A DNA stretch of 64,000 nucleotides. It comes from an uncultured Candidatus Saccharibacteria bacterium (lineage in GTDB: Bacteria; Patescibacteriota; Minisyncoccia; Phycocordibacterales; UBA9973). The translations under genes and the position numbers were made by a program. The DNA is taken from NCBI GenBank assembly GCA_964645245.1, contig CAZYBS010000002.1, positions 18,161 to 82,160 on the forward strand, written 5' to 3'. Shown piece after piece: positions 7,483 through 63,331 of this stretch. Below the pieces are notes generated by a model that made no database searches, was not told where the DNA came from, and was given only the letters and a program-made list of their open reading frames with translations. Position 1 is the stretch's first letter. Every line of letters begins with the position of its first letter.

Positions 7483-7596
7483 GGGCTTTTTGCTTGACTT
7501 TTAACATAAAATGTGCTATACTTGTACCGTTATCAGAATTGAGTTTCTGGTAGCCTCTACGGATGTTTCGTAGAGATTGTACATTGAAAGGTTCGT

Positions 7597-7743: not shown

Positions 7744-7964
7744 CTTGCAACACAAGAGCGCAAACTCTTGATAAAAAATCTTGCCGCCAGCGTTCGAGAG
7801 TTTACAGGCGTTAAAGTCAGAACTCTCAATATCATCATCTCTCACTCATTAGAACCTTCGGGTTTTCTAATAGTGAGCAGTACAATGAAGGTTTTTGTCT
7901 AAATCTTTATTCCTCTGCTCATAACTCCTTTAATTTTTGCGAATTTCTGCTATAATTTACCCAT

Positions 7965-9941: not shown

Positions 9942-10010
9942 AATGCAAAGTGAAATTAGAAATTGCCCCGCCTTCGCTAAAGCTACGGACGGGCAGGCAA
10001 AATTGCAAAT

Positions 10011-11819: not shown

Positions 11820-13544
11820 ATGAACAGTGAAAATAAAAATTGTCAGAATTGTAAAAAAGACTTCATCATCGAGCCGGAGGATTTTAATTTTTATGAGAAA
11901 ATAAAAGTTCCGCCACCGACTTTCTGTCCGGAGTGCCGGCTTCAAAGGCGCATGGCTTGGCGCAACGAGCGCACCCTTCATAGAAATAAGTGCGCCAAAA
12001 CAGGCAAAAGTTTGATTAGCTGCTTTTCTGCCGATTCGCCATTTACCGTTTACGATAGGGATATTTGGTGGGGAGACAAGTGGGATCCTACAGCATATGG
12101 AGTGGAATATGATTTCTCAAAGTCTTTCTTTAGCCAGTTCCGCAAACTTTTAGAAAAAGTTCCTCATCCAAATCTTTTTATAGGAAAATGCGTTAATACT
12201 TTCTATGGAAATTATATTGGTGAATTTAGAAATTCATACCTTGTATCAGCATCTTGGGTCGGAGATAACATAGCTTACGCATCACGTTGCAATAACTGCA
12301 AAGATTCTGTGGATATGTTTACCGTCAATAACTGTGAATTTTCTTATGAAGATGTTTCTTCTTCTAAGTGTTACGAAACTTTTTTCTCGCACAACGCTGA
12401 TTCCTGTACCAGTTCTTATTTTCTTTATGATTGTAAAAATTGCATAAATTGTTTTGGTTGCACATCACTTCGTAATAAATCTAACTGTATGTGGAACAAG
12501 CAACTTACCAAAGAAGAGTATGATAAAAAGTTTAAGGACTTAGATATTGGAAGTTTCGAAAATTTTAAAAAAATACAACAAGAATTCGAGGGACTTAAAT
12601 TAAAAGCTATTAGAAGATTTGCTAATATTATAAATTCTACTAATGTTTCTGGGGATGATATATTTCATTCTACTAATTCTCACTATTGTTTTGCTATATC
12701 AGATGATGTGAAGGATTGTAAGTTCATAATTAATTCTCTTGATCGTCTGTATAATAGTTATGATGGATACGGAACTGGTGCCAATACGGAATTGGTTTAT
12801 GAGGGAATGGACTCTGGCGTGAACGGATCCAGACAGTTATTCGTGCTTACAGTCTGGGAGTGCATGAATACAGAATATTCAATTAATTGTCATGGGTGCA
12901 ATAATATTTTTGGTTGCGCAGGCCTCCGTAAGAAAGATTATTGCATTTTTAACAAACAATATTCAAAAGAGGAATATGAAAAAATCAGGGCTCAGATAAT
13001 TGGACAGATGAATAAAATGCCATACGTTGACAAAAAAGGTCGTTCGTATAAATACGGGGAGTATTTCCCAGTGGAAATTTCTCCATTTGGATATAATGAA
13101 ACTGTATCGCAAGACTACTTCCCGCTTTCTAGAGAAGAAATTTTGAAGAACGGCTATAACTGGGTTGAACGAGAGAAACCAGAATATAAAACCACTTGTA
13201 CATCTAAAGATTTACCAGATCACATTAAAGATACTGATGAAAGTATTTTAAGTTTAGTCATTGAATGCGAATCCTGTAAAAGACCTTATAAAATTATTGA
13301 AAACGAGTATCTTTTTTTGAAAAGATTTAGTCTGCCGATACCACGGAAATGTTTTGAATGTCGCCACCAAGAACGATTTAAAAAGGTTAATCCGCCTAAA
13401 ATTTATCATAGGCAATGCATGTGCGAAAAAGGAAATCATTCTCATGGAGCAGGGAAGTGTACGGTAGAATTTGAAACATCCTACGCTCCCGACAGGCCTG
13501 AGATTATTTACTGCGAAAAATGTTACCAGCAGGAAGTGTATTAA
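11820..13544 (+). CDS. Cysteine-rich multi-CxxC protein, paralog 4
   Basis: 574 aa with the same N- and C-terminal modules (CQNCKKDFIIEPEDFNFYEKIKVPPPTFCPECRLQRRM ... FETSYAPDRPEIIYCEKCYQQEVY). Confidence 0.8.
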   Translation: MNSENKNCQNCKKDFIIEPEDFNFYEKIKVPPPTFCPECRLQRRMAWRNERTLHRNKCAKTGKSLISCFSADSPFTVYDRDIWWGDKWDPTAYGVEYDFSKSFFSQFRKLLEKVPHPNLFIGKCVNTFYGNYIGEFRNSYLVSASWVGDNIAYASRCNNCKDSVDMFTVNNCEFSYEDVSSSKCYETFFSHNADSCTSSYFLYDCKNCINCFGCTSLRNKSNCMWNKQLTKEEYDKKFKDLDIGSFENFKKIQQEFEGLKLKAIRRFANIINSTNVSGDDIFHSTNSHYCFAISDDVKDCKFIINSLDRLYNSYDGYGTGANTELVYEGMDSGVNGSRQLFVLTVWECMNTEYSINCHGCNNIFGCAGLRKKDYCIFNKQYSKEEYEKIRAQIIGQMNKMPYVDKKGRSYKYGEYFPVEISPFGYNETVSQDYFPLSREEILKNGYNWVEREKPEYKTTCTSKDLPDHIKDTDESILSLVIECESCKRPYKIIENEYLFLKRFSLPIPRKCFECRHQERFKKVNPPKIYHRQCMCEKGNHSHGAGKCTVEFETSYAPDRPEIIYCEKCYQQEVY

Positions 13545-13589
13545 ACACAACATTTTGCAAAATGACAAAATGTTGATAAGATAAATAAC

Positions 13590-13862
13590 ATGAGTTTACC
13601 ATATAAAAAAATCGAAAAAATAGTAAAAGGATTTGCAAATCATAGGCGACTTCAAATATTGGAGCTTCTAAGTAGAGTCCCTAATTTATCAGTTGATGAC
13701 ATATCTCAAAATTTAGATGTTGGATTTTTTACTATTTCAGATCATATACGCAAAGCGACTGATGCGGGATTAATTGAAAAGAAATATAAAGGTCGTTTTG
13801 TGCTTCACAGTCTTACAAAGAGAGGGAGGCATATTTTGTTATTTTGCAAAATGTTTAAATGA
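13590..13862 (+). CDS. ArsR/SmtB-family winged-helix transcriptional regulator
   Basis: 90 aa with HRRLQILELLSRVPNLSVDDISQNLDVGFFTISDHIRKATDAGLI (HTH plus wing). Confidence 0.6.
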   Translation: MSLPYKKIEKIVKGFANHRRLQILELLSRVPNLSVDDISQNLDVGFFTISDHIRKATDAGLIEKKYKGRFVLHSLTKRGRHILLFCKMFK

Positions 13863-19873: not shown

Positions 19874-21277
19874 TTAAATCTTTGAAATTTTCTGTCCTTC
19901 ACTTGTGTCCTTAATATCGTAACCCAGAGAATTTATTTTTTTGCGAAGTTCATCGGATTTTTTGAAGTTTTTATCAAGGCGGGCTTGCTCACGTTCTTTT
20001 ATAAGTTTTTGTATTTCTTCCGGTATTTTTTCTTCTTTTAAATCTGCAAAACCAAGTCCAAGTATTTTATCAAAATCCAAAATTGTCACTTTTTTGTCGG
20101 CATCGGACATATTTTCATCTTTTATTACATCCCAAAGGAGAGACAATGCTCTGGGGGTGTCTAAATCGTCTTCCATATATTCTCTAAACTTGTTTTGATA
20201 TTCTTGATGTACATTTCCAACATCCTTGCCTAGGCTCAGATAGAGGTTATAAAGCCGTTTTAGGGCGTTTTCCGCTCCTTCCAAGGCCTCCCAGTTAAAG
20301 TTCATTTTAGTGCGATAATTAGCCATTAGAAGCCAAAAGCGATAAGTTACAGAGTTTATGTTTTTATTGGTTAAATTTTCTAATTTTAAGAAATTATTTT
20401 CTGATTTGGACATTTTTACACCACCAGTATCAACAAATTCACTATACATCCAAAATTTAACGAAGGGCTTTTTACCAGTTGCACATTCCGATTGAGCTAT
20501 CTCATTGGTATGATGGGTGGTGATAAGGTCAATGCCCCCTGTATGGATATCAAATTGCTCGCCTAAGAATTTCATACTCATGGCTGAGCATTCTATGTGC
20601 CAACCAGGAAAACCCTTACTCCAGGGAGATTCAAAACCGATTTCGGATTCTTGTCCGCCTTTGGTGGAGAATTTCCAAAGCGCAAAGTCTTCCGGATTTT
20701 TCTTCTCAGAATTCTCAATAACTCTGGCGTGATTTTCCTGCCAAATTCTTTTTCCACCCCAAAGTATCCCATAGTCCGACATTTTTGAAATATCAAAATA
20801 AATTCCGTCGTTTGTTTTATATGTATATCCTTTTTCTTCCAGTTTTTTTATTAGATCTATATCTTCTTTTATATAATCGCTGGCAAAAGGCATTTTGTCC
20901 GGTATTTTAATATTTAATTTTTTCAAATTGTCCTTAAATTTTTCTGTATAGAATTCTGCCAACTCCCGCATATTTTTTAAATTCAAAACTTTTCCTTCAC
21001 GCAACAGTCCCTTAGTCATTTTATCTTCACCGGAGTCCGCATCGCTTGTTAGGTGTCCGATATCCGTAATGTTCATTACTTGTTTTACTTTTAGTCCGCT
21101 ATATTTGAGGGTGCGGCATAGAATATCAGCAAAAACATAAGAGCGTAAATTTCCTATATGCACATAATCATATACTGTCGGTCCGCAAGTATACATTCGG
21201 ACTTCGTCTTTATCAATAGGGGAGAAGTTTTCTTTTTTGCGCGTCAGAGTGTTATACAGTAATATTTTTTTGTGCAT
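19874..21277 (-). CDS. cysS: Cysteinyl-tRNA synthetase
   Basis: HIGH motif (CGPTVYDYVHIGNLRSY) and KMSKS. The ORF extends to 21292; the start is probably at MHKKILLYNTLTRKKE by comparison with the canonical CysS N-terminus. Confidence 0.9.
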   Translation of the reverse strand: MHKKILLYNTLTRKKENFSPIDKDEVRMYTCGPTVYDYVHIGNLRSYVFADILCRTLKYSGLKVKQVMNITDIGHLTSDADSGEDKMTKGLLREGKVLNLKNMRELAEFYTEKFKDNLKKLNIKIPDKMPFASDYIKEDIDLIKKLEEKGYTYKTNDGIYFDISKMSDYGILWGGKRIWQENHARVIENSEKKNPEDFALWKFSTKGGQESEIGFESPWSKGFPGWHIECSAMSMKFLGEQFDIHTGGIDLITTHHTNEIAQSECATGKKPFVKFWMYSEFVDTGGVKMSKSENNFLKLENLTNKNINSVTYRFWLLMANYRTKMNFNWEALEGAENALKRLYNLYLSLGKDVGNVHQEYQNKFREYMEDDLDTPRALSLLWDVIKDENMSDADKKVTILDFDKILGLGFADLKEEKIPEEIQKLIKEREQARLDKNFKKSDELRKKINSLGYDIKDTSEGQKISKI

Positions 21278-22289
21278 TTTCTTTGAATTCATTTCTATAA
21301 ATTGAGATAAGGGTGTAGAGTAAGCTTACCGTCAAAGGTCCTACTAAAATACCAACTGGACCCAAGAGCGAAACTCCGCCGAGCACTGAAAACAGAATCA
21401 AGAGGGAAGGCATATTTATTTTTTTGCCGACGATCAGCGGGCTTAAGAAATTGTCAATCATTCCTACCACCACGACTGCCCAGATTAAAAGACCTATAGC
21501 AGACGTGGTATCTCCAGTAATAAAAAGGAAAATAATTGCAGGAACTGAGACTAGAGCAGTACCAAAGGTCGGAATCAGAGATAGGACGGCAGCCACTACG
21601 CCCCAAAGTGCTCCATTGGGAATATTAAAAAGCCAAAATCCAAACCCCAAAAGTACTCCTTGGATCAGAGCTATTAAAAGAGATCCTTTTATTACAGCGT
21701 TGACGGCTTGCGCCAGCTTGGTAATTATTTTTTCATCATCTTTATCTCCCAGCGGACTAAGCACAACAATAGTTTCTCTCCATTTTGCTCCGTCTTTTAA
21801 AAAATAAAAAATAATTAAGAGCATTAATATAAATGAAAAGAAAGCGGAAATAGTAGTACTGAATATATTCGCTATATTATTTGATATGTAAGAAATAAAA
21901 TCCCTGGCTTTCTCGTTTATATTAAAAACTATACCTTCAGGCAATATTTTATTTACTGTATTGTTGATTGAATCCATGAATGGTTTAGCATTTCTTTCAT
22001 TTACAACTTGATGATAAACATTCTGACTTTGTTTAAAGACCATAGCGCTAATGCCTAAAAGCGGGCCACAGATTACTAGAGCAAAAAGACCCACAGTCAG
22101 AAAGGCAGAAAGCCAACTGGGCAATTTCCTATCATTGAGCCATTCGTATATAGGATAGAGCACAATGGAAAAAGAGATTCCAAGCACCAGCACTATCCAA
22201 AAAGGGCGGAAAATTAGAAAAGTGAAAAGAAGAGTTGCCAATAAGAGCCCGAAGAAAAAATATCTTTCAATAAATTTTGTTTGCATCAT
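21252..22289 (-). CDS. AI-2E family (UPF0118/PerM-like) membrane transporter
   Basis: 345 aa with ~8 TM helices and an architecture typical of the family. Confidence 0.5.
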   Translation of the reverse strand: MMQTKFIERYFFFGLLLATLLFTFLIFRPFWIVLVLGISFSIVLYPIYEWLNDRKLPSWLSAFLTVGLFALVICGPLLGISAMVFKQSQNVYHQVVNERNAKPFMDSINNTVNKILPEGIVFNINEKARDFISYISNNIANIFSTTISAFFSFILMLLIIFYFLKDGAKWRETIVVLSPLGDKDDEKIITKLAQAVNAVIKGSLLIALIQGVLLGFGFWLFNIPNGALWGVVAAVLSLIPTFGTALVSVPAIIFLFITGDTTSAIGLLIWAVVVVGMIDNFLSPLIVGKKINMPSLLILFSVLGGVSLLGPVGILVGPLTVSLLYTLISIYRNEFKENAQKNITV

Positions 22290-31871: not shown

Positions 31872-32237
31872 ATGAGCTACATAATTTCTGGCAGAGTTAT
31901 CAAAGGAGATGGTTACGGAAAGGAGATTGGTTTTCCGACGATAAATATAGACAGAAAAAATTTTTTAAATTTGAAACAGAGACCAGTTTTTGGAGTATAC
32001 GCTGGTCAGGTGAAGCTATCTGGTAAAATTTACAAAGCAGGAATAATCATTGGACCATTGGATAAACGCAGATTACCCAAAGTGGAAGCTCATTTAGTTG
32101 GCTATAAAGGTAATGCTCATGGCAAAAAAGCAATTTTTGAAATAAAAAAGTTTTTAAGAAAATTTGAAAAATTCAAAACAGATAAAGAGCTTATAGCACA
32201 AATTAAAAAAGATTTAAAAAAACTTGTCCCGTACTAA
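31872..32237 (+). CDS. Riboflavin kinase (flavokinase domain only)
   Basis: GRVIKGDGYGKEIGFPTINI. Confidence 0.8.
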   Translation: MSYIISGRVIKGDGYGKEIGFPTINIDRKNFLNLKQRPVFGVYAGQVKLSGKIYKAGIIIGPLDKRRLPKVEAHLVGYKGNAHGKKAIFEIKKFLRKFEKFKTDKELIAQIKKDLKKLVPY

Positions 32238-32293
32238 ATTTTTGATTACGTGTTATTATGATAAATATTAGTAAATAAAATTTTAGTACTGGG

Positions 32294-32866
32294 ATGTTCA
32301 CAGGCATAATTTCCAAAACCGCAAAAGTAAAAAAAGTAAATGCTAAAAGGGGTAGTTTTTCCATTGAAATTATTAATAATTTAAGAAAAGTAGAATTAGG
32401 AGAAAGTATTGCTGTAAACGGCGTCTGCTCCACTGTCAAGAGGTCAGGTAAAAATATCCATTTTGAATATATGCCGGAAACTTTAAAGCTTTCCAATTTA
32501 GGTTTTCTAAAGAAAGGTGATACAGTGAACGTTGAGCGATCAATGCGTTTAGGCGATAGGCTAGATGGGCATATAGTGCTTGGACATATTGATGAGAAAG
32601 GCGAAATTCTTAATATAACAAAAGAGAGAAATTCACGAGTATTCAACATAAAAGTACCGGACAGAAAGTTCTACAAGTTTTTATTTTATAAGGGGTCAGT
32701 CACAGTAGAAGGTATTAGTTTAACAGTGGCTAAAGTTTTTAAAAATTCTTTTGTTGTGAAGATTATTCCATATACTCTCAAACATACGAATTTAAAACAA
32801 AAGAAGAAAGGTAATTATGTGAATTTAGAGTTTGATATACTTGCCAAATATGCAAATCAAAAGTAA
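32294..32866 (+). CDS. ribE: Riboflavin synthase alpha subunit
   Basis: MFTGIIS... N-terminus and two lumazine-binding repeats. Confidence 0.85.
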   Translation: MFTGIISKTAKVKKVNAKRGSFSIEIINNLRKVELGESIAVNGVCSTVKRSGKNIHFEYMPETLKLSNLGFLKKGDTVNVERSMRLGDRLDGHIVLGHIDEKGEILNITKERNSRVFNIKVPDRKFYKFLFYKGSVTVEGISLTVAKVFKNSFVVKIIPYTLKHTNLKQKKKGNYVNLEFDILAKYANQK

Positions 32867-33323
32867 AACATACAAATATTTAAATGGAGAAAAGTTGAAG
32901 GTTGGTATTGTCGTGGCTAGATGGAATAATGAAATTACGGATGAGCTTTTAAAATCTGCATTGCTGATGTTGAAGAAAAACAAACTTAGCGAAGAAAAAA
33001 TAAAAATAGTGTCTGTCGCTGGTTCAGTGGAAATTCCTTTTGCTCTGCACAAGCTTGCACAATCCAAAAAACCTGCCCGACCAGGCGGTCGTTCGGGCGG
33101 GTATGATTTTTTGGTCGCTCTTGGGTGCATTATCAAAGGCAAGACTCCACATTTTGATTACGTTGCCAAAATGGTGCAAGAGGGTGTTTTAAAAGTTATG
33201 ATTGAAGATAATATGCCCGTCGGTTTCGGAGTGCTGACTGTGGATAACACCAAACAAGCAAGAGAGAGAACTCATGTTGGCGGAGAAGCCGCTTTTGCCG
33301 CACTCGAACTTGCTTTAATATAA
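32832..33323 (+). CDS. ribH: 6,7-dimethyl-8-ribityllumazine synthase
   Basis: [24 protein letters not shown] lies 5 nt upstream of the 32832 ATG. Confidence 0.88.
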
Positions 33324-33325
33324 AT

Positions 33326-34561
33326 ATGAAAAAGAATAAAAAAACTGAATTTAAATTAAATAAAATAGAAGATACTATTTTGGACATAAAATCTGGCAAG
33401 GTTGTAATCGTCGTGGATGACGCAAATCGGGAAAATGAAGGAGATTTTGTCGCAGCCGCAAGGAGTATAACTCCCGAAATAATAAATTTTGTGACGACTT
33501 ATGGGCGGGGGCTCCTATGTGTGTCCATCACGGAAGACAGGTGTAAAGAGCTTGAGCTTCCGATGATGACTTCTAAAAATACCTCTTTTCACTCTACATC
33601 TTTTACCGTTTCCGTGGATTTACTGGGCCATGGCTGCACTACTGGTATTTCCGCTCATGATCGGGCAAAAACAGTGCAGGCCCTAATTGACCCTTCTACC
33701 AAACCTGAAGATCTTGGCCGCCCCGGGCATGTTTTTCCCATTCAGGCGATGAATGGAGGAGTTTTAAGAAGAGCCGGGCATACGGAAGCAGCGGTGGATT
33801 TGGCGCGCTTAGCGGGAGTGGAACCGGCGGGCATTTTGGTTGAAATTATGAATAAAGACGGTACGATGGCTCGTTTGCCTGATTTAATGAAAATAGCGAA
33901 AAAATTTAATTTAAAGATTGTCAGCATAGAAGACCTGATTAGCTACAGATTAAAAAACGAAACTTTAATTAAAAGAGAAGTGCAGGTAAAACTCCCGTCG
34001 GAATGGGGCGATTTTGACTTATACGCTTATAGACGCACAGATACGGACGAAGAGCATTTGGCACTGGTAAAAGGAAAATGGGACAAAGACGAGCCTGTTT
34101 TGGTGCGTGTTCATTCTTCTTGTATTACCGGAGATGTTTTTGGTTCACTTCGCTGTGATTGCGGACCTCAACTTCATAGAGCTATGGAGCTAATAAATAC
34201 TCTGGGTAAGGGCGTGATTGTGTATATGAATCAAGAAGGCAGAGGGATAGGTCTTTTAAATAAGTTAAAAGCCTACAAGCTCCAAGAAAATGGTCTGGAT
34301 ACGGTGGAGGCGAATTTAAAACTCGGCTTTAAAATGGACGAACGGGATTATGGCATCGGAGCGCAGATTTTGCGGGATTTAGGTGTCTCTAAAATGCGGC
34401 TTTTGACCAACAATCCGAAAAAGCGCGCCGGACTTGTGGGCTATGGTCTGGAAATAGTGGAAAATATTCCCATAGAAATAAAATCAAATAGACACAACGA
34501 GCGATACCTCTTGACTAAACGCGATAAAATGGGCCACTTTTTTAATTTGGATGAGCTTTAA
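33326..34561 (+). CDS. ribBA: Bifunctional DHBP synthase / GTP cyclohydrolase II
   Basis: NRENEGDFV (RibB) and [20 protein letters not shown] (RibA). Confidence 0.92.
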
Positions 34562-34573
34562 AATTCCAAATTA

Positions 34574-35620
34574 TTATCTATTCACATAAGTCTGCAATTT
34601 ATCAGACCCGATTTTTTCCACTTTGGTCGGGCGTAGATTTATAACGGGCGCCTTGACGCCAGTCTTTATTTTTTTATTGGCCGTAAAGACGCGCATCTCA
34701 TCCCATAGATTATTTTTTATAAGGCTGTTCAGAAGTTGCGCTCCGCCTTCAATCATGACGGATTGGATTTTTCTTTTATAAAGCTCATTTAAAATTTGCG
34801 GAAGTATATTTTGCTTAAAATTAATTTTTACAAATTCCAAATTATGTTCCGAAACAGCGCTCCCGACTGTAAAGATTATAGTCGGCGTGCTTTTATCCAA
34901 TAAATTAAATTGCTTCGGTATTTTCAAATCTCGGTCTATTGCGATGCGCAGCGGATTTTTTCCTTTTACTTCGCGCGTTGTCAGATGCGGATTATCCAGC
35001 AGCGCTGTATTGGTGCCGACCATAATGGCCTGTGTTTGGCTTCTCAATTTATGCGTTAATATTTTATCCTGTTGATTGCTTATTGGTATTGCTTTTTTTG
35101 CGTTGTAAATATCGCGCTTGGCGTCAATAAAATGATCAGCAGTTTGAGCCCATTTTAAAATAACGTAAGGGCGTTTTTTTTCATGATAAGTAAAAAATTC
35201 TTTATTAAGTGTTCCACATTTGTTTTGGAGCACATTTACCCTTACATCAATGCCGGCTTTTTTTAGTTTTTTGATTCCTTGTCCGTTTACTTTTGCCGAA
35301 GCATCAATACAACCGATTACGACATATGGAATTTTGTGTTTAATGATTAAATCTGCGCAAGGCGGTGTTTTTCCAAAATGGGAACATGGCTCTAAATTTA
35401 CATACAGAGTGGCCCTTTTTAATAATTTTTTATCCAAAACCGAATTAATTGCATTAACTTCCGCATGGGCGCCCCCGTATTGCCGGTGATATCCAGCACC
35501 GATTATTTTATCATCAACCACAATCACGCTGCCCACCATTGGGTTGGGAGCCACTTTCCCTAAACCCTTTATCGCCAGCTTTAGGCAGCGCTCCATGTAT
35601 TTTTCATTTTTTGACGGCAT
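34574..35620 (-). CDS. ribD: Riboflavin biosynthesis deaminase/reductase RibD
   Basis: CMP/dCMP deaminase Zn motif HAEVNAI...PCSHFGKTPPCA plus a C-terminal reductase domain. Confidence 0.9.
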   Translation of the reverse strand: MPSKNEKYMERCLKLAIKGLGKVAPNPMVGSVIVVDDKIIGAGYHRQYGGAHAEVNAINSVLDKKLLKRATLYVNLEPCSHFGKTPPCADLIIKHKIPYVVIGCIDASAKVNGQGIKKLKKAGIDVRVNVLQNKCGTLNKEFFTYHEKKRPYVILKWAQTADHFIDAKRDIYNAKKAIPISNQQDKILTHKLRSQTQAIMVGTNTALLDNPHLTTREVKGKNPLRIAIDRDLKIPKQFNLLDKSTPTIIFTVGSAVSEHNLEFVKINFKQNILPQILNELYKRKIQSVMIEGGAQLLNSLIKNNLWDEMRVFTANKKIKTGVKAPVINLRPTKVEKIGSDKLQTYVNR

Positions 35621-35692: not shown

Positions 35693-36028
35693 ATGTCCAA
35701 AAACGATTTATTAAAGAAAAAATGCGTGCCATGCGAAGGGGGAGTGAAGCCCTTGAGCCTAGAAGAGGCTAAAGACTATTTAGATGAAATTCCGGGCTGG
35801 ACTCTAAATGGGGAAGGCAAAAAAATCTCCAAAACTTTCAAATTTGCCGATTTCATCGGGGCGATAAATTTTGTGGAGCGCGTGGCCGACGTGGCCGAAA
35901 TGGAAAACCATCATCCCGATATTCACATCCATTATAACAAAGTCTTGCTGGAGCTCTGGACTCATGCCATCGGCGGACTTTCCGAAAATGACTTTATTGT
36001 TGCTGCGAAAATTGATGCGCGTAAATAA
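35693..36028 (+). CDS. Pterin-4a-carbinolamine dehydratase
   Basis: EMENHHPDIHIHYNKVLLELWTH. Confidence 0.85.
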   Translation: MSKNDLLKKKCVPCEGGVKPLSLEEAKDYLDEIPGWTLNGEGKKISKTFKFADFIGAINFVERVADVAEMENHHPDIHIHYNKVLLELWTHAIGGLSENDFIVAAKIDARK

Positions 36029-36037
36029 AATTTACAT

Positions 36038-36070
36038 ATCTCTAATTCGCGCGAATAGGCGAATAGTTAT
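36038..36070. repeat. Intergenic repeat R1 (ATCTCTAATTCGCGCGAATAGGCGAATAGTTAT) containing the palindrome ATTCGCGCGAAT; copy 1 of 3
   Basis: Related copies are at 40734..40766 and 47190..47257. Confidence 0.6.
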
Positions 36071-36118
36071 CTGATTAAAGTATTCTAATATTCTATAGAA
36101 TTGTAGAATGGAAATATT

Positions 36119-36159
36119 AAAGGGACGGATTGTCGTTTGACAAATCCGTCCCTTTGCGT
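36119..36159 (-). terminator. 12-bp perfect hairpin AAAGGGACGGAT-N13-ATCCGTCCCTTT, likely the terminator of the minus-strand GNAT unit
   Basis: Read directly; on the minus strand it is followed by TTTAATATTT. Confidence 0.5.
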
Positions 36160-36189
36160 TGGCCAGCGCGATGTCGGCCTTTTATCCGT

Positions 36190-36270
36190 TTACTTCTTCG
36201 GTTTGGGTGGTTCGGGAGCCTTCGGTGGTTGTGGTTTTGTGTCCTCGTCGTCTGGGCTCATGTAATACAT
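36190..36270 (-). CDS. Possible 26-aa Pro/Lys-rich peptide (MYYMSPDDEDTKPQPPKAPEPPKPKK) with a perfect SD
   Basis: AAAGGAGA lies 7 nt upstream of the ATG on the minus strand, inside the GC-rich island between the GNAT gene and the hairpin. Confidence 0.2.
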   Translation of the reverse strand: MYYMSPDDEDTKPQPPKAPEPPKPKK

Positions 36271-36331
36271 GGCTTTTATCTCCTTTCAATCAGATCCAAT
36301 CCGAAGGTATTGGTAACGGTAGCTTTCCTTT

Positions 36332-36976
36332 TTACTTTTCTTCGGACTCTAGTGGTGGAACGAGTCTATAAGCATCACGATACAGCTTATAGAGTAGCTC
36401 AACCGAGTCGCGCCTATAGTAGATTCCATCCACGTTTGCGCGAATCGCCCCCGGCAGGATCCCGACGGAGCGGAATCCTAGCTTGTGGAACAACTTGAGT
36501 GTCACCGTGTGGAAACGAGCCACAGATACGGTGGCAAGTTCAGCGCCGGATTCCTCAGCGTAGCGATCGAGAATCTTTGTCGCCGTAGTTGCCGATAGAC
36601 GTCCCCTGAAATCCGGGTGGACTACACCTAGCGTAAAATCCACTGAGAGATTCAGAGAATCCGTGCGCAAGAGTGCAGAACCAGCGATATGCCCTTCTGA
36701 CGTTTCAAGCGCGAAAACCTCATGTCCTTCCATCGGAAGGTTGCCGTACCACTCAGGTTCCAGAAGGAACCCGAACGTACCTCGATAGAGTTCCGGGAAT
36801 CCTTTTGCCCATACGTCAGCTAGCGTTTCCGCTGTCTCCCTGCTTACGTTGTTGAGTCGCTTGATTGTAGATCCGCGCCCCAAGGATTGTGGATCGAACG
36901 TGGTCCAATTCCACCGCCCTTCCTCCCATGGTTTTACTGGCGTATTGTACAGTTTAAAGTTTCTTCCCAGTTCCAT
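36332..36976 (-). CDS. GNAT-family acetyltransferase-like protein (GC-rich island)
   Basis: VHPDFRGRLSATTATKIL...FHKLGFRSVG resembles GNAT motif A. The start is assigned to the internal Met (MELGRN...) preceded by AAAGGAGA; the ORF extends to 37045. Confidence 0.5.
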   Translation of the reverse strand: MELGRNFKLYNTPVKPWEEGRWNWTTFDPQSLGRGSTIKRLNNVSRETAETLADVWAKGFPELYRGTFGFLLEPEWYGNLPMEGHEVFALETSEGHIAGSALLRTDSLNLSVDFTLGVVHPDFRGRLSATTATKILDRYAEESGAELATVSVARFHTVTLKLFHKLGFRSVGILPGAIRANVDGIYYRRDSVELLYKLYRDAYRLVPPLESEEK

Positions 36977-37268
36977 AGCTTCTCCTTTCAAAGAACAGAT
37001 TTGTCGTCTCGGAACATCCGAGCATACATGAAAGAACAAAAACACCAGCCGAGAGGGCTGGTGTTTGAGTTGTAAGTTGAGTTTTAGTTTTTTTACAGCG
37101 CAAATATCAGCCTTCTAATGGAAAGCTGGTAATAAGCATTTAATATTGAAGTATTTCTTTGTTGTTGAATATTACTATTCATATTTCGCATACTAGCATG
37201 TTTTGATAAAAAGCGCAAGCGAATTTGTAGAAGTCATAATTCCGCTTATACTATCTACTTCACTCAAT

Positions 37269-37293
37269 TAAAGTACTTTAGTTAAGTAAAGTA
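37269..37293. promoter_or_regulatory. Repeat R2 (TAAAGTACTTTAGTTAAGTAAAGTA), same as the putative operator at 40681..40705
   Basis: 24 of 25 nt are identical to the 40681 copy, and it contains TAAAGTA/TACTTTA half-sites. Confidence 0.45.
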
Positions 37294-37310
37294 ATGGATA
37301 TAAATAATAT

Positions 37311-37493
37311 TTATCTATAGCCCATTAATAAAAGTATAATTAATACACAAACTAATATTATTAATAAGGTCCACAAAAAAGCATTCCAAGGGTCTTCTTC
37401 ATTTAAATATTTTGACCATTTCTTACTTCCATCGATTAATATCAGTATTGGTAGCTGAATACATAAAAAGAAAATTGGTTCAAAAACTCCCAT
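37311..37493 (-). CDS. Small 2-TM membrane protein, cassette copy 2
   Basis: Paralog of 29614..29799 (LPILILIDGSKKWSKYLNEEDP...). Confidence 0.55.
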   Translation of the reverse strand: MGVFEPIFFLCIQLPILILIDGSKKWSKYLNEEDPWNAFLWTLLIILVCVLIILLLMGYR

Positions 37494-37494
37494 G

Positions 37495-37686
37495 TTAGTT
37501 GCACCTTACTGGTGATCTTAGCTTTTCTTTGGCGACCCAAAATTTTTCAATATAAAAACAGTTCACGCATCTTGTTCTTTGCGCTTCGACTTTGCCATAG
37601 ACTCCGTTTACCATCTTGGTTTGGTATTTTTTCATTTTGTGGCTGGTCAATAGGCAGCATTTAATTCTTAAAATTATTTTATTCAT
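37495..37686 (-). CDS. Small 4-Cys protein, cassette copy 2
   Basis: Paralog of 29418..29612 (KMVNGVYGKVEAQRTRCVNC...VRCN). Confidence 0.55.
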   Translation of the reverse strand: MNKIILRIKCCLLTSHKMKKYQTKMVNGVYGKVEAQRTRCVNCFYIEKFWVAKEKLRSPVRCN

Positions 37687-37761
37687 GGCTTTGTAAGTAA
37701 TAAAAATTTTTGGAGGAAGGGAAGGGTGATGTGCCCAACCCTTCCGCCAATGTATCTATCT

Positions 37762-38817
37762 CTATCTACTGGCTGTGATTACCGTCAGGATGCTTTCGCG
37801 CTTACCGCACCGCTGGAGGTTCCTTGCCAGTTCTGTTGCAGCTAGAAAGTTGGCACCCGCAGAGCTTGCTCCGTCGATACCAAAGGTCTTCAGTAGCCGA
37901 ACACCTTCTCTCGCTTCTTTGTCCGTAACGATACGAACTTGTTCTACGCTTGGCAGATGGTCAAGAACAAGCCTCGTCGGATCCCCGACGCCCAAACCTT
38001 CAATACCGATAACCTTTGATACTACTCGCGGGAAGTCGATATTGATGTCGAACCAGTTCTCCGGACTTCTTTGTGGATGGCAGCTGAGCGAAACTATCAT
38101 CCCCGCAGTTTCGTATGCCCGGAGGGCTTTTTCGACAGCTCTCTTTTTGACCTCGTACTTGTCTCTGGCACGCAAGTAGGCATGCCAGAGAGTTAAGGTT
38201 GAACCCACCCCTTCAACGGCTATGATTCGGGTATGAGGATTCACTTCGCGCAACGCCAATCCAATTCCGAAGAGGGTACCACCCGTGCCGACCCCAGCCA
38301 CGAGGTGGCTAGGTGCCCCGAGTCGTTCCACGATAGCCCTCCCGAATGTTCGTTTCTGGATATCGAGGATGACCGGCTGCTCGTGCTGTTCGAGCAACAT
38401 GTATCCTCTCTTCCGGCAGAGCTTTTTTGCCGTGGTGAGGCGACCGGTTCGGCCTTCGCGACGCGGGGTTTCCATAACCACTTCAATACCCATCGTCTTG
38501 AGTTTCTCGACGACGGGCCGACTGGTTTCGACGTATACAACCGCGGTGACCCCGACTCTGACCCCGAGTTCGTCTACGGCAAGTTTTACACCTTGTACGG
38601 TGTTTCCTCCGCCGACAACGACTACGGATCGAGTTGTATCCTTGATCTTCCCGGTGTCAAGGTAGTGCGCTAGCAGGCACTTGCCGATGGAGGTTTTGAC
38701 TCCAGCCGGCAATGTGTCGGCCCGAAAGAGAACAATTTTTTGTCCATGCCTTTTGGTGGTGCACAAAGGGACAGACAAAGCCCTTTCGTACTCTCTCTGT
38801 ACTGTCTCTTTGTACAC
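37762..38817 (-). CDS. PLP-dependent cysteine synthase / CBS-like (fold type II) enzyme, GC-rich; GTG start
   Basis: GVGTGGTLFGIG glycine loop and VVVGGGNTVQG. The start codon is GTG, 5 nt after AAAGGAGG. Confidence 0.6.
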   Translation of the reverse strand: MYKETVQREYERALSVPLCTTKRHGQKIVLFRADTLPAGVKTSIGKCLLAHYLDTGKIKDTTRSVVVVGGGNTVQGVKLAVDELGVRVGVTAVVYVETSRPVVEKLKTMGIEVVMETPRREGRTGRLTTAKKLCRKRGYMLLEQHEQPVILDIQKRTFGRAIVERLGAPSHLVAGVGTGGTLFGIGLALREVNPHTRIIAVEGVGSTLTLWHAYLRARDKYEVKKRAVEKALRAYETAGMIVSLSCHPQRSPENWFDINIDFPRVVSKVIGIEGLGVGDPTRLVLDHLPSVEQVRIVTDKEAREGVRLLKTFGIDGASSAGANFLAATELARNLQRCGKRESILTVITASR

Positions 38818-39047
38818 CTTTGCCTCCTTTCAAAAGATGCTCCGTGGCGGCAATTTTACCCGCCACGGAGCAAGCCGACTCGACGAGACTACCGGACGTG
38901 CATGTGCACGTGCCGGCGCGCCTTGCGGCTTACACGGATGCGCATAAAGAACAATCCTTTCTGAGCTCCTAATAGACAAGAGGTTTCTCGTCCTAGGGCT
39001 CTTGAAATTTTCTTTTGCTTTAAAGAAAACTCGGAAGAGCCCAGCGA
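38818..39047 (-). promoter_or_regulatory. Structured GC-rich leader of the CysK-like gene
   Basis: 11-bp perfect hairpin (38840-38850/38860-38870) plus UCUUUU immediately before the RBS, and a second GC hairpin at 38896-38920. Confidence 0.35.
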
Positions 39048-40208
39048 CTACACATATCTACGATCTACTTTTTCCGGGATACGACTCAAAAACTCATAAT
39101 TATTCTGTTTTATGCTCCTGCAGATTTCTTCCAGTTTTATTTCTTTTCCTTTTTGTTTTCCTAAAATAACAACCTCGTCGCCGGCCTTGATGGTTTTTTT
39201 GCTACCGATGTTCACAAAACAATTTGTCATGTTAATTCCGCCGACCAACGGATATTTAACTCCGCCAATTATTACTTTCCCTCCATTTACAAGCCGAGAG
39301 TCAAGGCCATAGGAGTAACCAGGAAGAAGAATAGCAATTCGAGTTTTCCGTTTGGCAATAAACTTTCTTCGATAAAATATGCCCTCACCCTTTTCAAGCT
39401 CTTTAATGCAGGCAATTATGGTTTTGAAAGAAACTACAGGAAACAGGTCTATTGTGCTTTTTCGTCTAGCTTCTAGTGAGGGATAAAAGCCAAAAAGTGA
39501 AATGCCAAGACGCACCATATCGAGAAGGGATTCCGAGAAAAGAAAAGCAGCTTCACTTGAAGCGATGCTCCATAAAGGAATTTTGATTTTCTCTTTTTGA
39601 CAACTTTCTTTAATCGCTATGAAGCGTTTAAATTGGATCTTGTCGAACTTTTTTTCTTCTGTAAAACTACTCAAGACACCTTCGATTTTTATGTTTTTCG
39701 ACTGCGAAACAGCACGTATAAATTTCAAAGCATCTTGATATGGCACACCAAGACGTCCTAAGCCAGTATCAATTTTTATCCACACTCCGCTTCTCATCTT
39801 GAGTTTTCTAGATACACTCTCAAAATTTCTAAGCATGGTATAGGTAAAAATAGTAGGATTAATTTGATTTTTTACGAGCTTTTCCCCATCTTCAAAACTA
39901 TATATTCCGAGGTTCACGATTGGCTTTGTAATTCCACCTTTTCTTAAAGTTATTGCTTCCTTTATTCCCACAACACCAAATACATCTATATATTTTTGAA
40001 GGGTATTGGACACACCCAAAACCCCCAAGCCATATGCATTTGCTTTCAACACCGCCATTATTTTACTTGGTTTGGTTATTCGTTTCATTTGGGCAATGTT
40101 TTTCAACAGATTTGCCTTATTAATTTCTATCCAAACTAATGGTTTTTTAATTTTTCTTTCACTATTTACAATTCTCATTTTTTTATTTTTTAAATTTCTA
40201 ATAAACAA
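39048..40208 (-). CDS. alr: Alanine racemase
   Basis: AVLKANAYGLGV PLP-Lys motif; 386 aa. Confidence 0.85.
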   Translation of the reverse strand: MFIRNLKNKKMRIVNSERKIKKPLVWIEINKANLLKNIAQMKRITKPSKIMAVLKANAYGLGVLGVSNTLQKYIDVFGVVGIKEAITLRKGGITKPIVNLGIYSFEDGEKLVKNQINPTIFTYTMLRNFESVSRKLKMRSGVWIKIDTGLGRLGVPYQDALKFIRAVSQSKNIKIEGVLSSFTEEKKFDKIQFKRFIAIKESCQKEKIKIPLWSIASSEAAFLFSESLLDMVRLGISLFGFYPSLEARRKSTIDLFPVVSFKTIIACIKELEKGEGIFYRRKFIAKRKTRIAILLPGYSYGLDSRLVNGGKVIIGGVKYPLVGGINMTNCFVNIGSKKTIKAGDEVVILGKQKGKEIKLEEICRSIKQNNYEFLSRIPEKVDRRYV

Positions 40209-40254
40209 AAACCCCTGCCTAAACTTAGGCAGGGGTTAGCTTCAAAAAATAAAT

Positions 40255-40662
40255 TTACGAGCTTAAAGATAACCCACGCCTAAGTTTAGGTGAGTTGTGG
40301 TGATGTGAAGAGACATTAGAAAGGCGAGCGAGGATTAACCTGTACCCGCCGAGCGAGCCGTAGAGCCACTTTGCGATGCGGGCAATGGTGGCGGAAGAGA
40401 GACCGGTAGATTCACTGATTGCATTATATTGCACGTCATTGGCAAGGAGCCGGGCGGCTTCAAATCTGTTTGTGAATTCTTTGATTTCCGCCGGTGTCAT
40501 CAAATCGCGAAGAAAACGCTTGGTCTCATCGGCATTTTTGAGCTCCAAAATTCCAGCAATTAATTGCCTGTTTTCCTTAGTATTCCAGTCCATATCCGGG
40601 CCAATTTCTTGTATTAGCCGTACGGTTCTTATGGATGTATTTTTATTCATTCCTTTACTCAT
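40255..40662 (-). CDS. TrpR-like (YerC/YecD family) DNA-binding protein, paralog 2
   Basis: MTPAEIKEFTNRFEAARLL...AISESTGLSSATIARIAKWL. Confidence 0.6.
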   Translation of the reverse strand: MSKGMNKNTSIRTVRLIQEIGPDMDWNTKENRQLIAGILELKNADETKRFLRDLMTPAEIKEFTNRFEAARLLANDVQYNAISESTGLSSATIARIAKWLYGSLGGYRLILARLSNVSSHHHNSPKLRRGLSLSS

Positions 40663-40666
40663 ACAG

Positions 40667-40706
40667 CTACTTTAGCAGACTAAAGTACTTTAGTCAAGTA
40701 AAGTAG
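40667..40706. promoter_or_regulatory. Nested palindrome CTACTTTAGCAGACTAAAGTACTTTAGTCAAGTAAAGTAG (includes the 14-bp perfect palindrome CTAAAGTACTTTAG) 5 nt upstream of the TrpR-like start
   Basis: Read directly; it is made of TAAAGTA half-sites. Confidence 0.5.
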
Positions 40707-40733
40707 CTAGGGGAGGTGTGGATAACTTATTAT

Positions 40734-40766
40734 ATCCCTAATTCGCGCGAATGAGCCTATACTTAT
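40734..40766. repeat. Intergenic repeat R1 copy 2 (ATCCCTAATTCGCGCGAATGAGCCTATACTTAT)
   Basis: Shares ATC(T/C)CTAATTCGCGCGAAT with 36038..36070. Confidence 0.55.
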
Positions 40767-40781
40767 TGCAAGTAATTGATA

Positions 40782-41363
40782 TTAGGCAGGGAATTTGCCT
40801 TCAAAGATTATTTCTTCCAGGGGCTTTCGGTTGCTTGGGGTCTCGCGGGCGCGGAGGTCTTCTGGCAGGTCTTCAATTTTTCCAGGTTTGCCGACAGCAA
40901 TCATCATTTCTACATTGTAATCGTCGGGGACGCCTAGCTTTTCCTTCGCCATTTTATAATCAAATCCTTCCATACCGTGAGCAACGAGTCCCATAGTTTG
41001 CGCCTGGAGAGCCAAATTTTCCCAAGCAGATCCAGAGTCAAAGGAGTGAGTGATGGAGAATTTTCCACTAGTGCTTGTTTTTTTGGAAATCGTTACGATC
41101 AACGCTCCAGCATTTTTGCACCAATCTTTATTAAATTGCACAAGAAAGGAAAATAAATTCTCAAATTCCGGCGTATCCCGCATAGCATATATAAATCTCC
41201 ACGGCTGGGCATTGTAAGAAGACGGCGCCCAGCGGGCGGCCTCAAAAAGAGTTATCAGTTCTTCTTTGGAAATTTTTTCTCCCGACATCGCCCTCGGCGA
41301 ATGCCTTTTAAGAAACATGTCGTCAATGGGGTATTCTGTTGTCCTTCCGTTTACTGTTTTCAT
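40782..41363 (-). CDS. Nitroreductase family protein (moderately GC-rich)
   Basis: RHSPRAM and APSSYNAQPWRF. Confidence 0.8.
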   Translation of the reverse strand: MKTVNGRTTEYPIDDMFLKRHSPRAMSGEKISKEELITLFEAARWAPSSYNAQPWRFIYAMRDTPEFENLFSFLVQFNKDWCKNAGALIVTISKKTSTSGKFSITHSFDSGSAWENLALQAQTMGLVAHGMEGFDYKMAKEKLGVPDDYNVEMMIAVGKPGKIEDLPEDLRARETPSNRKPLEEIIFEGKFPA

Positions 41364-41377
41364 CTATCCAGTATACA

Positions 41378-45463: not shown

Positions 45464-47188
45464 ATGAGTAATATTAGCGAAAAGAGAATATGTACAAATT
45501 GTCGTGGCGAATTTATTATTGAGCCGGATGATTTTGGATTTTATCAGAAAATCAAAGTCCCTCCGCCGACTTTTTGCCCGGAATGCCGATTTCAGCGGCG
45601 ACTAATGTTTAGAAACGAGCGAAGTTTTTACAAAAGGAAATGCGATTTATGCGAAAAGGATATTATCGCATCATATCCTTCCAACACAGCTTTTCCAGTT
45701 TATTGCGTGAAGTGCTGGTGGAGCGATAAGTGGGACCCAACGGGTTATGGTAAGGATTTTAATTTCTCGCGTCCATTTTTTGGACAGTTTAAGGAACTTT
45801 TGCTTCGTGTCCCAGTGCTTTCAATAATGAATGATGATGGCGTGGGAAGCGTAAACTCCGAGTGGTCATATGATTGGGCATTTAGCAAGAATTGTTATCT
45901 TGGAGCGTGCGGCTGGCATGTGCAGAATGGCGCCTATATGTATAATGCGAATTATGATAAGGACGTGGTGGATATCTGGAGTGTAACTAATTCCGAACTT
46001 GTCTATGAGGGTGTTACTTGTGATAACTGCTACAACATAAAATACTGCACTTTGTGTTTTAACTCAAATCACTGTACGCTTGGTTTTGATCTCCGGGGAT
46101 GTTCGGATTGTACAATGTGCGTTGGGCTTCGAAGCGTAAAATATTGCATTCTCAATCAACAGTATTCAAAAGAAGAGTATGAACAAAAAGTGAAAGAATT
46201 GCATCTTGAAAGCCGAAAATCACTTGAGGCGCATATGAAAGAATTTCAAGAGTTAGTTCTTAAGATTCCACGGAAATTCGCATACAATAGTAAAACAATT
46301 AATTCAACAGGCAACAATCTTATTGAGGTGAAAATGTCCAAGGATTGTTTTTTTATCATCGGTCCGACGGAAAATTCACGATTCGTTGTTGTGAATGATA
46401 GGGCTAAAGATTGTTATGACCTTAACAATACTGGCAATACAGAACTATGTTATGAATCAGTTACGCCAGATAACTCGCGCGGAAATAAAAGCACAATATT
46501 TTGCTGGAAATGTGTTGAGGCGGAATATTCAAATAATTGCCATTCCTGTATAAGTGTATTTGGTTCCAGCGGCCTCAAGCACACTTCATATGCAATTCTC
46601 AATAAGCGATATTCCAAAGAAGACTATGTTTCACTTCGCGCGCGTATAATTGAGCACATGAAAACGACGGGTGAATGGGGCGAGTTTTTCCCTCATACAA
46701 TAAGCCCCTTTGCCTACAACGAAACAGCGGCGCTTGAGTGGTTTCCATTGACCAAAGAGAAAGCAATAGCCAAGGGATATTGTTGGAAAGATAACGAAAA
46801 AAGAAACTACATCCCAACCAAAACTATTTCTAATCTTCCAGACACTATTCAAGGGGTTGATGATAATTTTTTAAATGAGATTTTTGAGTGTGCACATAAA
46901 GGTAAATGTGATGAAAGGTGTACTGAAGCATTTCGAATTATTCCCCGGGAACTTCAATTTTACCGTAGAATGAATATTCCTCTTCCTGTGTTGTGCCCTA
47001 ACTGCCGGCATTATCAAAGATTTAAGATTAAAAATCCACCACGACTCTGGCACAGGCAATGTATGTGCGACAAAGAAAATCATTTTCACGGGGCCGGGAA
47101 GTGTCAAGTAGAATTTGAAACAAGCTATGCACCAGACCGGCCGGAGATTGTGTATTGCGAGAAATGCTACCAGCAAGAAGTGTACTGA
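45464..47188 (+). CDS. Cysteine-rich multi-CxxC protein, paralog 5 (singleton)
   Basis: 574 aa with CTNCRGEFIIEPDDFGFYQKIKVPPPTFCPECRFQRRL ... FETSYAPDRPEIVYCEKCYQQEVY. Confidence 0.8.
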   Translation: MSNISEKRICTNCRGEFIIEPDDFGFYQKIKVPPPTFCPECRFQRRLMFRNERSFYKRKCDLCEKDIIASYPSNTAFPVYCVKCWWSDKWDPTGYGKDFNFSRPFFGQFKELLLRVPVLSIMNDDGVGSVNSEWSYDWAFSKNCYLGACGWHVQNGAYMYNANYDKDVVDIWSVTNSELVYEGVTCDNCYNIKYCTLCFNSNHCTLGFDLRGCSDCTMCVGLRSVKYCILNQQYSKEEYEQKVKELHLESRKSLEAHMKEFQELVLKIPRKFAYNSKTINSTGNNLIEVKMSKDCFFIIGPTENSRFVVVNDRAKDCYDLNNTGNTELCYESVTPDNSRGNKSTIFCWKCVEAEYSNNCHSCISVFGSSGLKHTSYAILNKRYSKEDYVSLRARIIEHMKTTGEWGEFFPHTISPFAYNETAALEWFPLTKEKAIAKGYCWKDNEKRNYIPTKTISNLPDTIQGVDDNFLNEIFECAHKGKCDERCTEAFRIIPRELQFYRRMNIPLPVLCPNCRHYQRFKIKNPPRLWHRQCMCDKENHFHGAGKCQVEFETSYAPDRPEIVYCEKCYQQEVY

Positions 47189-47189
47189 T

Positions 47190-47257
47190 ATCTCTAATTC
47201 CTGCCAGAGGCAGGCAAACGCGCCTGTCCGCCTTTGGTGGAAATAGGCGAATGGTTA
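47190..47257. repeat. Intergenic repeat R1 copy 3, carrying a 43-bp GC-rich hairpin insert (CCTGCCAGAGGCAGG...)
   Basis: ATCTCTAATTC ... AATAGGCGAATGGTTAT matches the ends of copy 1, with foreign sequence in place of the central GCGCG. Confidence 0.5.
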
Positions 47258-47297
47258 TATATGTATAAGATTTCTGCATATGCGGATTTTCTGTACA

Positions 47298-63326: not shown

Positions 63327-63331
63327 AATAT

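Follow-up and report, generated by a model that had tools for sequence, protein, structure and literature searches.

The 64,000-nucleotide stretch of contig CAZYBS010000002.1 considered here (the window), from an uncultured bacterium deposited as Candidatus Saccharibacteria, carries three copies of a short, quasi-palindromic repeat, R1. We consider it probable (roughly 0.6) that R1, in many cases fused to a -10 box, serves as operator for a small regulator of the ArsR/SmtB family. The evidence is comparative: the motif, its distribution, its linkage to a regulator gene, its co-variation with paralogs of that regulator and its geometry relative to promoters are all directly observed, and from these we infer binding, repression and leaderless transcription starts. 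The original prediction allowed for an operator, an element resembling REPs (repetitive extragenic palindromic sequences) or MITEs (miniature inverted-repeat transposable elements), or an integration scar. Of the three, the operator is best supported: R1 brackets an ArsR-type gene in dozens of lineages, and does so as well around genes chosen purely by protein similarity.

Three copies of R1 in the window

Direct reading of the sequence bears out the three predicted copies.

36036-36070, forward strand: R1 copy 1, short form, ATATCTCTAATTCGCGCGAATAGGCGAATAGTTAT; dyad centre between 36050 and 36051, core palindrome at 36045-36056
40732-40766, forward strand: R1 copy 2, short form with a diverged right arm, ATATCCCTAATTCGCGCGAATGAGCCTATACTTAT; core palindrome at 40741-40752
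47188-47258, forward strand: R1 copy 3, long form; left arm ATATCTCTAATTC at 47188-47200, right arm AATAGGCGAATGGTTAT at 47242-47258
47201-47213, 47220-47223 and 47227-47241, forward strand: inner parts of copy 3 as read from the sequence, respectively hairpin A, GCGC and hairpin B

The perfect palindrome expected in copies 1 and 2 is there: both contain the 12-bp ATTCGCGCGAAT without mismatch (36045-36056 and 40741-40752). Copy 3 had been described as disrupted by a 43-bp GC hairpin. Its flanks are indeed kept, but the insert is 41 GC-rich nt (47201-47241) that take the place of GCGCG and comprise two hairpins, CTGCC-AGA-GGCAG and TCCGCC-TTT-GGTGGA, around a retained GCGC. Folded as RNA, copy 3 reaches -30.2 kcal/mol (z = -3.2).

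The repeat is far beyond chance: with up to three mismatches, the R1 19-mer matches the window twice against 0.04 expected, and the right flank twice against 0.5 expected. No further copy was found in the window plus 10 kb of additional contig on each side; these 84 kb hold three copies in total.

Copy 1 starts 8 nt beyond the stop codon of pcd (36026-36028), and the first base of copy 3 is the last base of the TGA stop of a Cys-rich gene of 574 aa. Copy 2 is flanked by the stop of a nitroreductase gene (40782) and the start of a TrpR/YerC-like gene (40662), both on the reverse strand. Read on that strand it becomes ..ATTCGCGCGAATTAGGGATATAAT.., close to the site upstream of an ArsR-like gene in another locus, L075. 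An independent assembly of the same organism (Logan contig SRR8863434_119300, L002) breaks inside copy 1, at about window position 36064, which is consistent with a repeat or with strain variation at that point.

R1 is a motif of Patescibacteria at large

The window belongs to a metagenomic contig of 212.6 kb (ENA ERZ27284378, k139_459614), and its gene content is of Patescibacteria type. Members of this group have tiny genomes with few transcription factors, and hardly any of their regulation is known from experiment. A scan of one genome per GTDB species with the 18-mer TCYCTAATTCGCGCGAAT matched at least 119 stretches. Among the stretches listed, all but one belong to Patescibacteria-type metagenome-assembled genomes (MAGs), which carry the labels of 16 candidate phyla (Nomura-, Zambryski-, Giovannoni-, Kaiser-, Sung-, Lipton-, Harrison-, Taylor-, Vogel-, Niyogi-, Moran-, Uhr-, Veblen-, Kerfeld- and Doudnabacteria, and Paceibacterota). 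The sole outsider, from a Fibrobacter MAG, is without the 3' block and appears to match by chance. Some MAGs are labelled Saccharibacteria or Gammaproteobacteria; these labels are probably unreliable, because the same lineage-specific genes are present. The original prediction would have had to be abandoned were R1 confined to its three places and unconserved in relatives; instead it is conserved across MAGs of all 16 candidate-phylum labels. The R1 core had no match in 2.9 million viral contigs, and no description of the motif was found in the searchable literature, a query with the literal sequence included.

Alignment of 134 oriented sites gives the full element as TCTCTAATTCGC|GCGAAT-A-R-K-M-GAATAR; as a quasi-palindrome of 29-34 bp its consensus is (CTAT)TCTCTAATTCGC|GCGAAT-A-R-K-M-GAATAG. 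Copy 1 agrees with the family consensus, TCTCTAATTCGC|GCGAATAGGCGAATAG, at every position over about 30 nt, and over that length it is identical to sites in unrelated Patescibacteria MAGs (for example L016, L024 and L033). The motif statistics are biased in that sites were chosen by an exact left arm, and the gene calls in the loci are crude; positions +6 to +15 lie outside the search pattern and are conserved at 0.9-1.5 bits. Perfect 24-bp palindromes occur at 14 sites, and some of them extend to 34-40 bp.

R1 brackets the gene of an ArsR-type regulator

Clustering of the open reading frames (ORFs) that lie just downstream of R1 revealed one dominant family, with about 24 members of 86-95 aa (sequence type ...LKALANRRRLAILKYLK...ASVGDIAEEIKLSFKATSKHL...REQRSLQMFY...ISLL). 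The family occurs throughout Patescibacteria. It scores 63.4 bits against the ArsR/SmtB model NF033788 of NCBIfam (cut-off 55) and matches the winged-helix families HTH_5 and HTH_20 of Pfam; its nearest solved relatives are HlyU, NmtR and BigR. Cysteines are absent from the protein sequences examined, as are recognisable metal-site motifs.

A profile search of the captured loci, which had been picked through R1, returned 37 ArsR-like genes. An R1 core lies within 90 nt upstream of 32 of them and at or after the stop codon of 34, the TAA within R1 often being the stop itself; 29 have R1 on both sides. Most exceptions to two-sided bracketing are long forms of R1 or miscalled starts. Because these loci had been selected through R1, the association was checked from the protein side: a homology search with the ArsR-like protein produced about 990 homologue clusters, and R1 brackets all three ArsR-like genes that were chosen by protein similarity alone. 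Around ArsR-like genes R1 occurs 2-3 times per 20 kb.

Diverged paralogs of the regulator show the same layout with a different palindrome: AACATTCTTGAGAATGTT in L057, GGCTAATTCGTACGAATTAGCC in L070, and a further case in L094. The window itself holds such a paralog.

13590-13841: ArsR-family paralog, 84 aa, 29% identical to the R1-type regulators

Inverted palindrome arms AACATTTTGCAAAATGACAAAAT (of AACATTTTGCAAAATG type) stand on either side of this gene, at 13549-13571 and 13833-13855, and the second of them overlaps the stop codon; the layout is that of R1 and the site is another. Some genomes also have variants of their own, such as the TGTCTA arm at all three sites of L181 and the GAGC centre at both sites of L185. 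Bracketing together with paralog co-variation is the classic signature by which comparative genomics recognizes a candidate pair of transcription factor and operator.

Likeness to the operators of known ArsR/SmtB proteins (SmtB, CzrA, CadC, NolR, HlyU, BigR) is considerable. Both are imperfect inverted repeats of about 24-30 bp. The known operators serve small dimeric winged-helix regulators and overlap or abut promoters, both that of the regulator gene and those of its neighbours; R1 would do likewise with its candidate regulator, to judge from the sites upstream of ArsR-like genes in other genomes. R1 has the dyad of about 12+12 bp that typifies ArsR-type operators, arranged as 12-0-12 against the classic 12-2-12. 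We therefore file R1 with these operators, from which it nevertheless departs in several respects: it stands at both ends of the gene, with the second site over the stop codon; it is nearly invariant across candidate phyla; it occurs inside ORFs; it has long forms with hairpins at the dyad; and it shows no coherent target pathway. The R1-type proteins examined differ in turn by being without cysteines and without recognisable metal-site motifs of the a3N and a5 kind, as these sites are generally described.

Two arrangements of R1 and predicted promoters

The position of R1 relative to promoters differs between lineages. In those of low GC content, R1 is followed after 10-30 nt by a canonical extended -10 box, TGnTATAAT, from which it is a few nt to the ATG, and R1 then occupies the -35 region. 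In GC-richer lineages the right arm, TGGTAGAAT, doubles as a perfect extended -10, with the ATG 6-8 nt further on, which implies leaderless mRNAs. Over all sites, start codons are most frequent at +20 to +27 from the dyad, with the mode at +20 for the TAGAAT variant and at +23/24 for the others. Among the cleaner low-GC loci, R1 has the direction of its co-directional flanking genes in 29 cases and the opposite direction in 2. Sites usually begin 0-20 nt past a stop codon, as do copies 1 and 3. The geometry suggests an operator that is fused to a promoter or abuts one.

Under the mechanism that we propose, a dimer of the ArsR-like protein, or two dimers, would bind the dyad and control the attached promoter. 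Where the right-hand block TGGTAGAAT serves as extended -10, transcription would begin without a leader about 20 nt from the dyad centre; in the other lineages, R1 would cover the -35 of the TGnTATAAT promoter downstream. The regulator gene would sit between two sites, one on its own promoter and the other over its stop codon and before the next gene. A site that covers the regulator's own promoter implies autoregulation.

A nearly base-for-base conserved site tied to one small regulator family would offer a testable entry into gene control in Patescibacteria. With a protein of 86-95 aa and a site of about 30 bp, binding can be tested in vitro without culture, and the regulon can be read from the thousands of MAGs already available.

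The window copies in context

Copy 2 is the only window copy that lies upstream of a gene. The features around it are as follows.

40255-40662, reverse strand: YerC/TrpR-related gene (Pfam Trp_repressor; NCBIfam TIGR02531 YerC/YecD, 65.8 bits, cut-off 42.2)
40729-40734, reverse strand: TATAAT hexamer directly after copy 2 in the minus-strand reading, a possible -10 box
40665-40710: R2 palindromes, inverted repeats that overlap a TTGACT-17-TAAAGT promoter found by promoter scan

The distance from copy 2 to the predicted start of the YerC/TrpR-like gene is about 85 nt, and the TTGACT-17-TAAAGT promoter would start the mRNA of that gene at its ATG, a predicted leaderless transcript. In a related genome whose pcd is 85% identical (L128), a site TGTCTAATTCGTACGAATAGGAGAACAG stands at the position of copy 2, before the orthologous TrpR/YerC-like gene, although the neighbouring genes differ. 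Its centre has changed from GC to TA, a symmetric change, and the dyad is therefore kept. Copy 2 is probably a working site, and the YerC/TrpR-like gene is its likely target.

Copy 1 is absent after pcd in the relatives L128, L129 and L130, and copy 3 is absent from the orthologous gap of L130 between the Cys-rich and VanY genes. We regard both as orphan sites. They may be left over from modules that lost their genes by replacement, or may act as roadblock or decoy sites.

R2-type sites (TACTTTAGT.AAGTAAAGTA) resemble Trp-repressor operators; in the window they occur at 40665-40710 and 37251-37293, and in L128 and L130 they lie directly after pcd.

Observations at odds with a simple operator

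Several observations weigh against the operator. No R1-type ArsR gene was found in the 84 kb of the window and its 10-kb flanks: tblastn of the window matched only the 29%-identical paralog with its different palindrome, and the flanks showed no ArsR-like gene. The presence of a cognate regulator in this genome is inferred from relatives. Copies 1 and 3 lie in convergent gaps with no downstream gene to drive. Genes downstream of R1 are functionally diverse and form no coherent regulon; Pfam scans of 80 of the proteins they encode revealed no enriched function, and we accordingly rejected the notion of a pathway regulon. The asymmetric right arm AGGCGA is conserved and outnumbers the symmetric arm among the 134 sites, and the orientation bias is ill-suited to a simple operator. 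In long forms (below) the half-sites are 19-36 bp apart, too far for a single dimer to span on duplex DNA. Finally, 13 of 61 sites in low-GC loci, about a quarter, lie within genes, in frame.

The intragenic copies are mostly translated as SLIRAN, run in the sense direction in 9 of 11 cases and are far better conserved than the codons around them. Four MnmA genes carry R1 at the same loop position (L009, L028, L106, L122); the loop is variable and exceeds that of the S. pneumoniae structure by 5 aa. Two PPDK-like genes carry R1 at matching positions (L035, L071). Further examples come from L006, L015, L044, L070, L081 and L120, and the gene types concerned include GT1 and DegT. Occurrence in frame within variable loops of conserved genes (MnmA, PPDK-like, GT1, DegT) recalls the Rickettsia palindromic elements (RPEs), which are about 100-150 nt long. 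R1 differs from RPEs in its length of 29-34 nt, in being mostly intergenic and promoter-associated, and in showing no sign of recent proliferation.

Long forms and a possible role as hairpin

A metagenome scan for both arms at a spacing of 10-40 nt found 50 loci. The commonest long form is TCTCTAATTC-GCGCGCCTGCCCGCCTCTGGAGGG-AATAGGCGAAT; other classes have inserts of 25 or 35-38 nt, or inverted inserts, or are of the double-hairpin type of copy 3 (for example L165). Homologues of copy 3 occur in L114, L017, L121 and L165. Long forms share the contexts of short forms, including positions directly upstream of ArsR-like and Cys-rich genes.

These forms give weight to the strongest alternative to an operator, namely that R1 acts as a hairpin in RNA or single-stranded DNA, a REP-like structural element after stop codons and between cistrons. 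Such a stem would be recognized by the ArsR-like protein or by another factor and could affect the stability, processing or translation of mRNA; its apical loop would tolerate nested GC hairpins. In long forms the arms stay perfect and only the centre expands (from 4 to about 24, 35 or 41 nt), as is usual for hairpin loops. Pairing of the nested hairpin reaches 98.7%, with CG-to-UA compensation at two pairs, and none of 500 shuffles was as high. The inner hairpin has six non-Watson-Crick cells. Read on the R1-sense strand, five of these are U.G and the sixth is G.G; none is A.C, as wobble of the opposite strand would appear. The agreement with the direction of transcription (29:2, and 9 of 11 within genes) and the start of sites 0-20 nt after stop codons point the same way.

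Against this, the stem of the short form is weak (copy 1, -8.3 kcal/mol, z = -0.96). The right arm varies (AGGCGA, GGTAGA, AAGCGA) without compensation in the left arm, and the pair -7:+6 is A.A in 99 of the 134 sites. Where R1 precedes an ArsR-like gene with a recognisable promoter, it coincides with the -35 region or is upstream of it, and would therefore not be transcribed from that promoter. No Rfam family matched at gathering score in the whole window, and permissive scans at copies 1 and 3 gave hits at chance level (E >= 0.26). The GC hairpins, moreover, also occur alone outside R1, so that nesting may come from a mutational habit and not from selection for a loop. On balance we judge a hairpin function unlikely, though it deserves to be kept in mind.

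The hairpins belong to a family (CCTG[C/T]CCGCC-loop-GG.GG, or GCCTGCCTGCCGGCAGGCAGG) that recurs in many AT-rich Patescibacteria genomes, nested in R1 or alone, and may represent a terminator or a small mobile hairpin; loci with it include window 47201-47241, L011, L055, L106, L114, L140 and L165. The 16-mer TGTCCGCCTTTGGTGG of the copy 3 insert has an exact second match at 20651-20666, with flanks GGATTC/GAATTT. This match falls inside the coding sequence of cysteinyl-tRNA synthetase (19874-21292, reverse strand) and is possibly coincidence or convergence.

A transcription terminator was rejected: short forms fold weakly, and copy 1 is followed by a terminator-like hairpin of its own. The latter, a separate structure of canonical appearance, lies at about 36124-36155.

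Comparison with REPs, and the possibility of a spreading cassette

The suggestion that R1 is REP- or MITE-like amounts to a resemblance. Like REPs and the bacterial interspersed mosaic elements they compose, with their REP-associated tyrosine transposases (together, REPtrons), R1 is a short imperfect palindrome that follows stop codons, and copies of it flank a cognate gene. Palindrome families differ from paralog to paralog, some forms are composite or nested, and orientation is biased. The differences are no less clear. The flanked gene encodes a winged-helix regulator and not a Y1 (IS200/IS605-like) transposase; a few copies occur in tens of kb, where REPs number tens to hundreds in a genome; no target-site duplication was seen; R1 is not strictly extragenic (the 13 of 61 sites above); flanking copies are direct, not inverted; and conservation extends across phyla where REPs are species-specific.

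A broader proposal, which we advance tentatively and think unlikely to hold in full, is that R1 and the ArsR-like protein form a Patescibacteria-wide partnership, in which a portable operator-promoter cassette is partly recognized as a hairpin. The cassette would have reached many promoters and gene ends, and would even have entered conserved ORFs in frame, with nested GC hairpins tolerated. If true, this would be a REPtron-like pairing of element and protein built on a winged-helix regulator, and would amount to a global regulator or a chromosome-marking system. Intragenic copies, two-ended bracketing and hairpin long forms all indicate that there is more to learn about spread and recognition.

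A further parallel is the replication terminator protein (RTP) of Bacillus subtilis, a small winged-helix dimer whose gene lies beside asymmetric, bipartite, orientation-dependent Ter sites that are also autoregulatory. The proposed R1 pair would resemble RTP and Ter in these general features. It differs in that R1 stands at the promoters of many genes, and there is no evidence of clustering at a replication terminus.

R1 as a possible self-contained promoter

We consider it improbable that R1 is simply a promoter, read by a housekeeping or alternative sigma factor through TCTCTA as -35, a 17-bp spacer and AATAGT as -10, with the ArsR gene merely one of its users and with copies wherever transcription has to be strong or special. 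The conserved span (-12 to +16) is of promoter size, with 17 bp between the outer blocks; the peak of ATG positions 20-27 nt from the centre would fit leaderless starts, and R1 is co-directional with downstream genes. However, TCTCTA and GAATAG match the sigma-70 hexamers poorly, a canonical TGnTATAAT box of its own comes after many of the sites, and copies 1 and 3 have nothing to transcribe. Dyad symmetry, perfect palindromes of 24-40 bp and paralog-specific palindromes are traits of a site for a dimeric protein and not for a sigma factor.

R1 and the hypervariable slot

The stretch between pcd and the M1 peptidase gene (36070-41377) is hypervariable, with four gene sets in four related genomes; the synteny around this slot is kept (pcd on one side, M1 peptidase-ScpA-ScpB-Cys-rich-VanY on the other). 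Here it holds GC-rich genes, a GNAT-like gene (36.2-37.1 kb, 47-54% GC) and a gene for a pyridoxal phosphate-dependent enzyme (37.7-38.9 kb, 52-57% GC), which were probably acquired, the genome being about 39% GC. Two copies of R1 had been described as bordering such islands next to R2-type sites. The GC-rich genes are real, the first of them about 260 nt from copy 1, but only copy 2 adjoins an R2 palindrome (40665-40710); from copy 1 to the other R2, at 37251-37293, the distance is 1.2 kb.

These circumstances bear on the idea of R1 as a miniature mobile element, or as a place of recombination or integration that marks the entry of foreign DNA, with the direct copies 1 and 2 bounding an island. 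In its favour are the four gene sets in the slot and the GC-rich genes within it; the lack of copies 1 and 3, perfect in consensus, at orthologous positions of relatives, which indicates recent gain rather than slow evolution in place; the in-frame copies that recall RPEs; and the Logan contig that ends inside copy 1. Several results speak against it. No target-site duplication was seen around copies 1 or 3, whose flanks share only the repeat itself. No integrase was found between 33 and 54 kb and no recombinase domain among the 20 neighbouring proteins scanned, the loci not having been searched for transposase; a scan of the window for tRNA and tmRNA genes found none. In the three relatives examined the borders of the slot are without R1, those of L128 and L130 having R2-type palindromes instead. 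R1 is also sparse, with only three copies over 84 kb and no match among 2.9 million viral contigs, and near-identity across 16 candidate-phylum labels is hard to explain by transposition. We regard mobility or integration at R1 as very improbable, and the integration scar of the original prediction is not supported. A boundary or target duplication of the island was rejected, there being no R1 at the edges of the slot in those relatives. In annotation, R1 is unsuited as a marker of foreign DNA.

Three other classes of repeat were dismissed: DNA uptake sequences, which occur about once per kb, on account of only 3 copies in 84 kb; integron attC sites, whose core sites R''/R' are RYYYAAC and GTTRRRY, since the arms TCTCTAATTC and GAATAG are unlike these and there are no arrays and no integrase in the region scanned; and repeats of the CRISPR (clustered regularly interspaced short palindromic repeats) kind, again since there are no arrays.

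Cys-rich genes and metabolic clusters

The Cys-rich, zinc-ribbon-like proteins form a family of at least 7 paralogs of about 560-590 aa, located as follows.

59-1171, window: Cys-rich paralog
1215-2894, window: Cys-rich paralog
10011-11777, window: Cys-rich paralog
11820-13544, window: Cys-rich paralog
45464-47188, window: Cys-rich paralog
6542-9957, L124: Cys-rich paralogs

The family had no match in Pfam, NCBIfam or PDB. In other Patescibacteria, Cys-rich genes rank second in frequency among the neighbours of R1, which often separates tandem members.

The window also contains a riboflavin operon (31872-35620) and part of a near-complete purine cluster (PurL/Q/F, a PurN-PurD fusion, PurE, PurM, PurC and PurB; 61944-63997, continued in L126 at 1-10000). 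Both pathways are unusual for Patescibacteria, which are generally thought to lack them.

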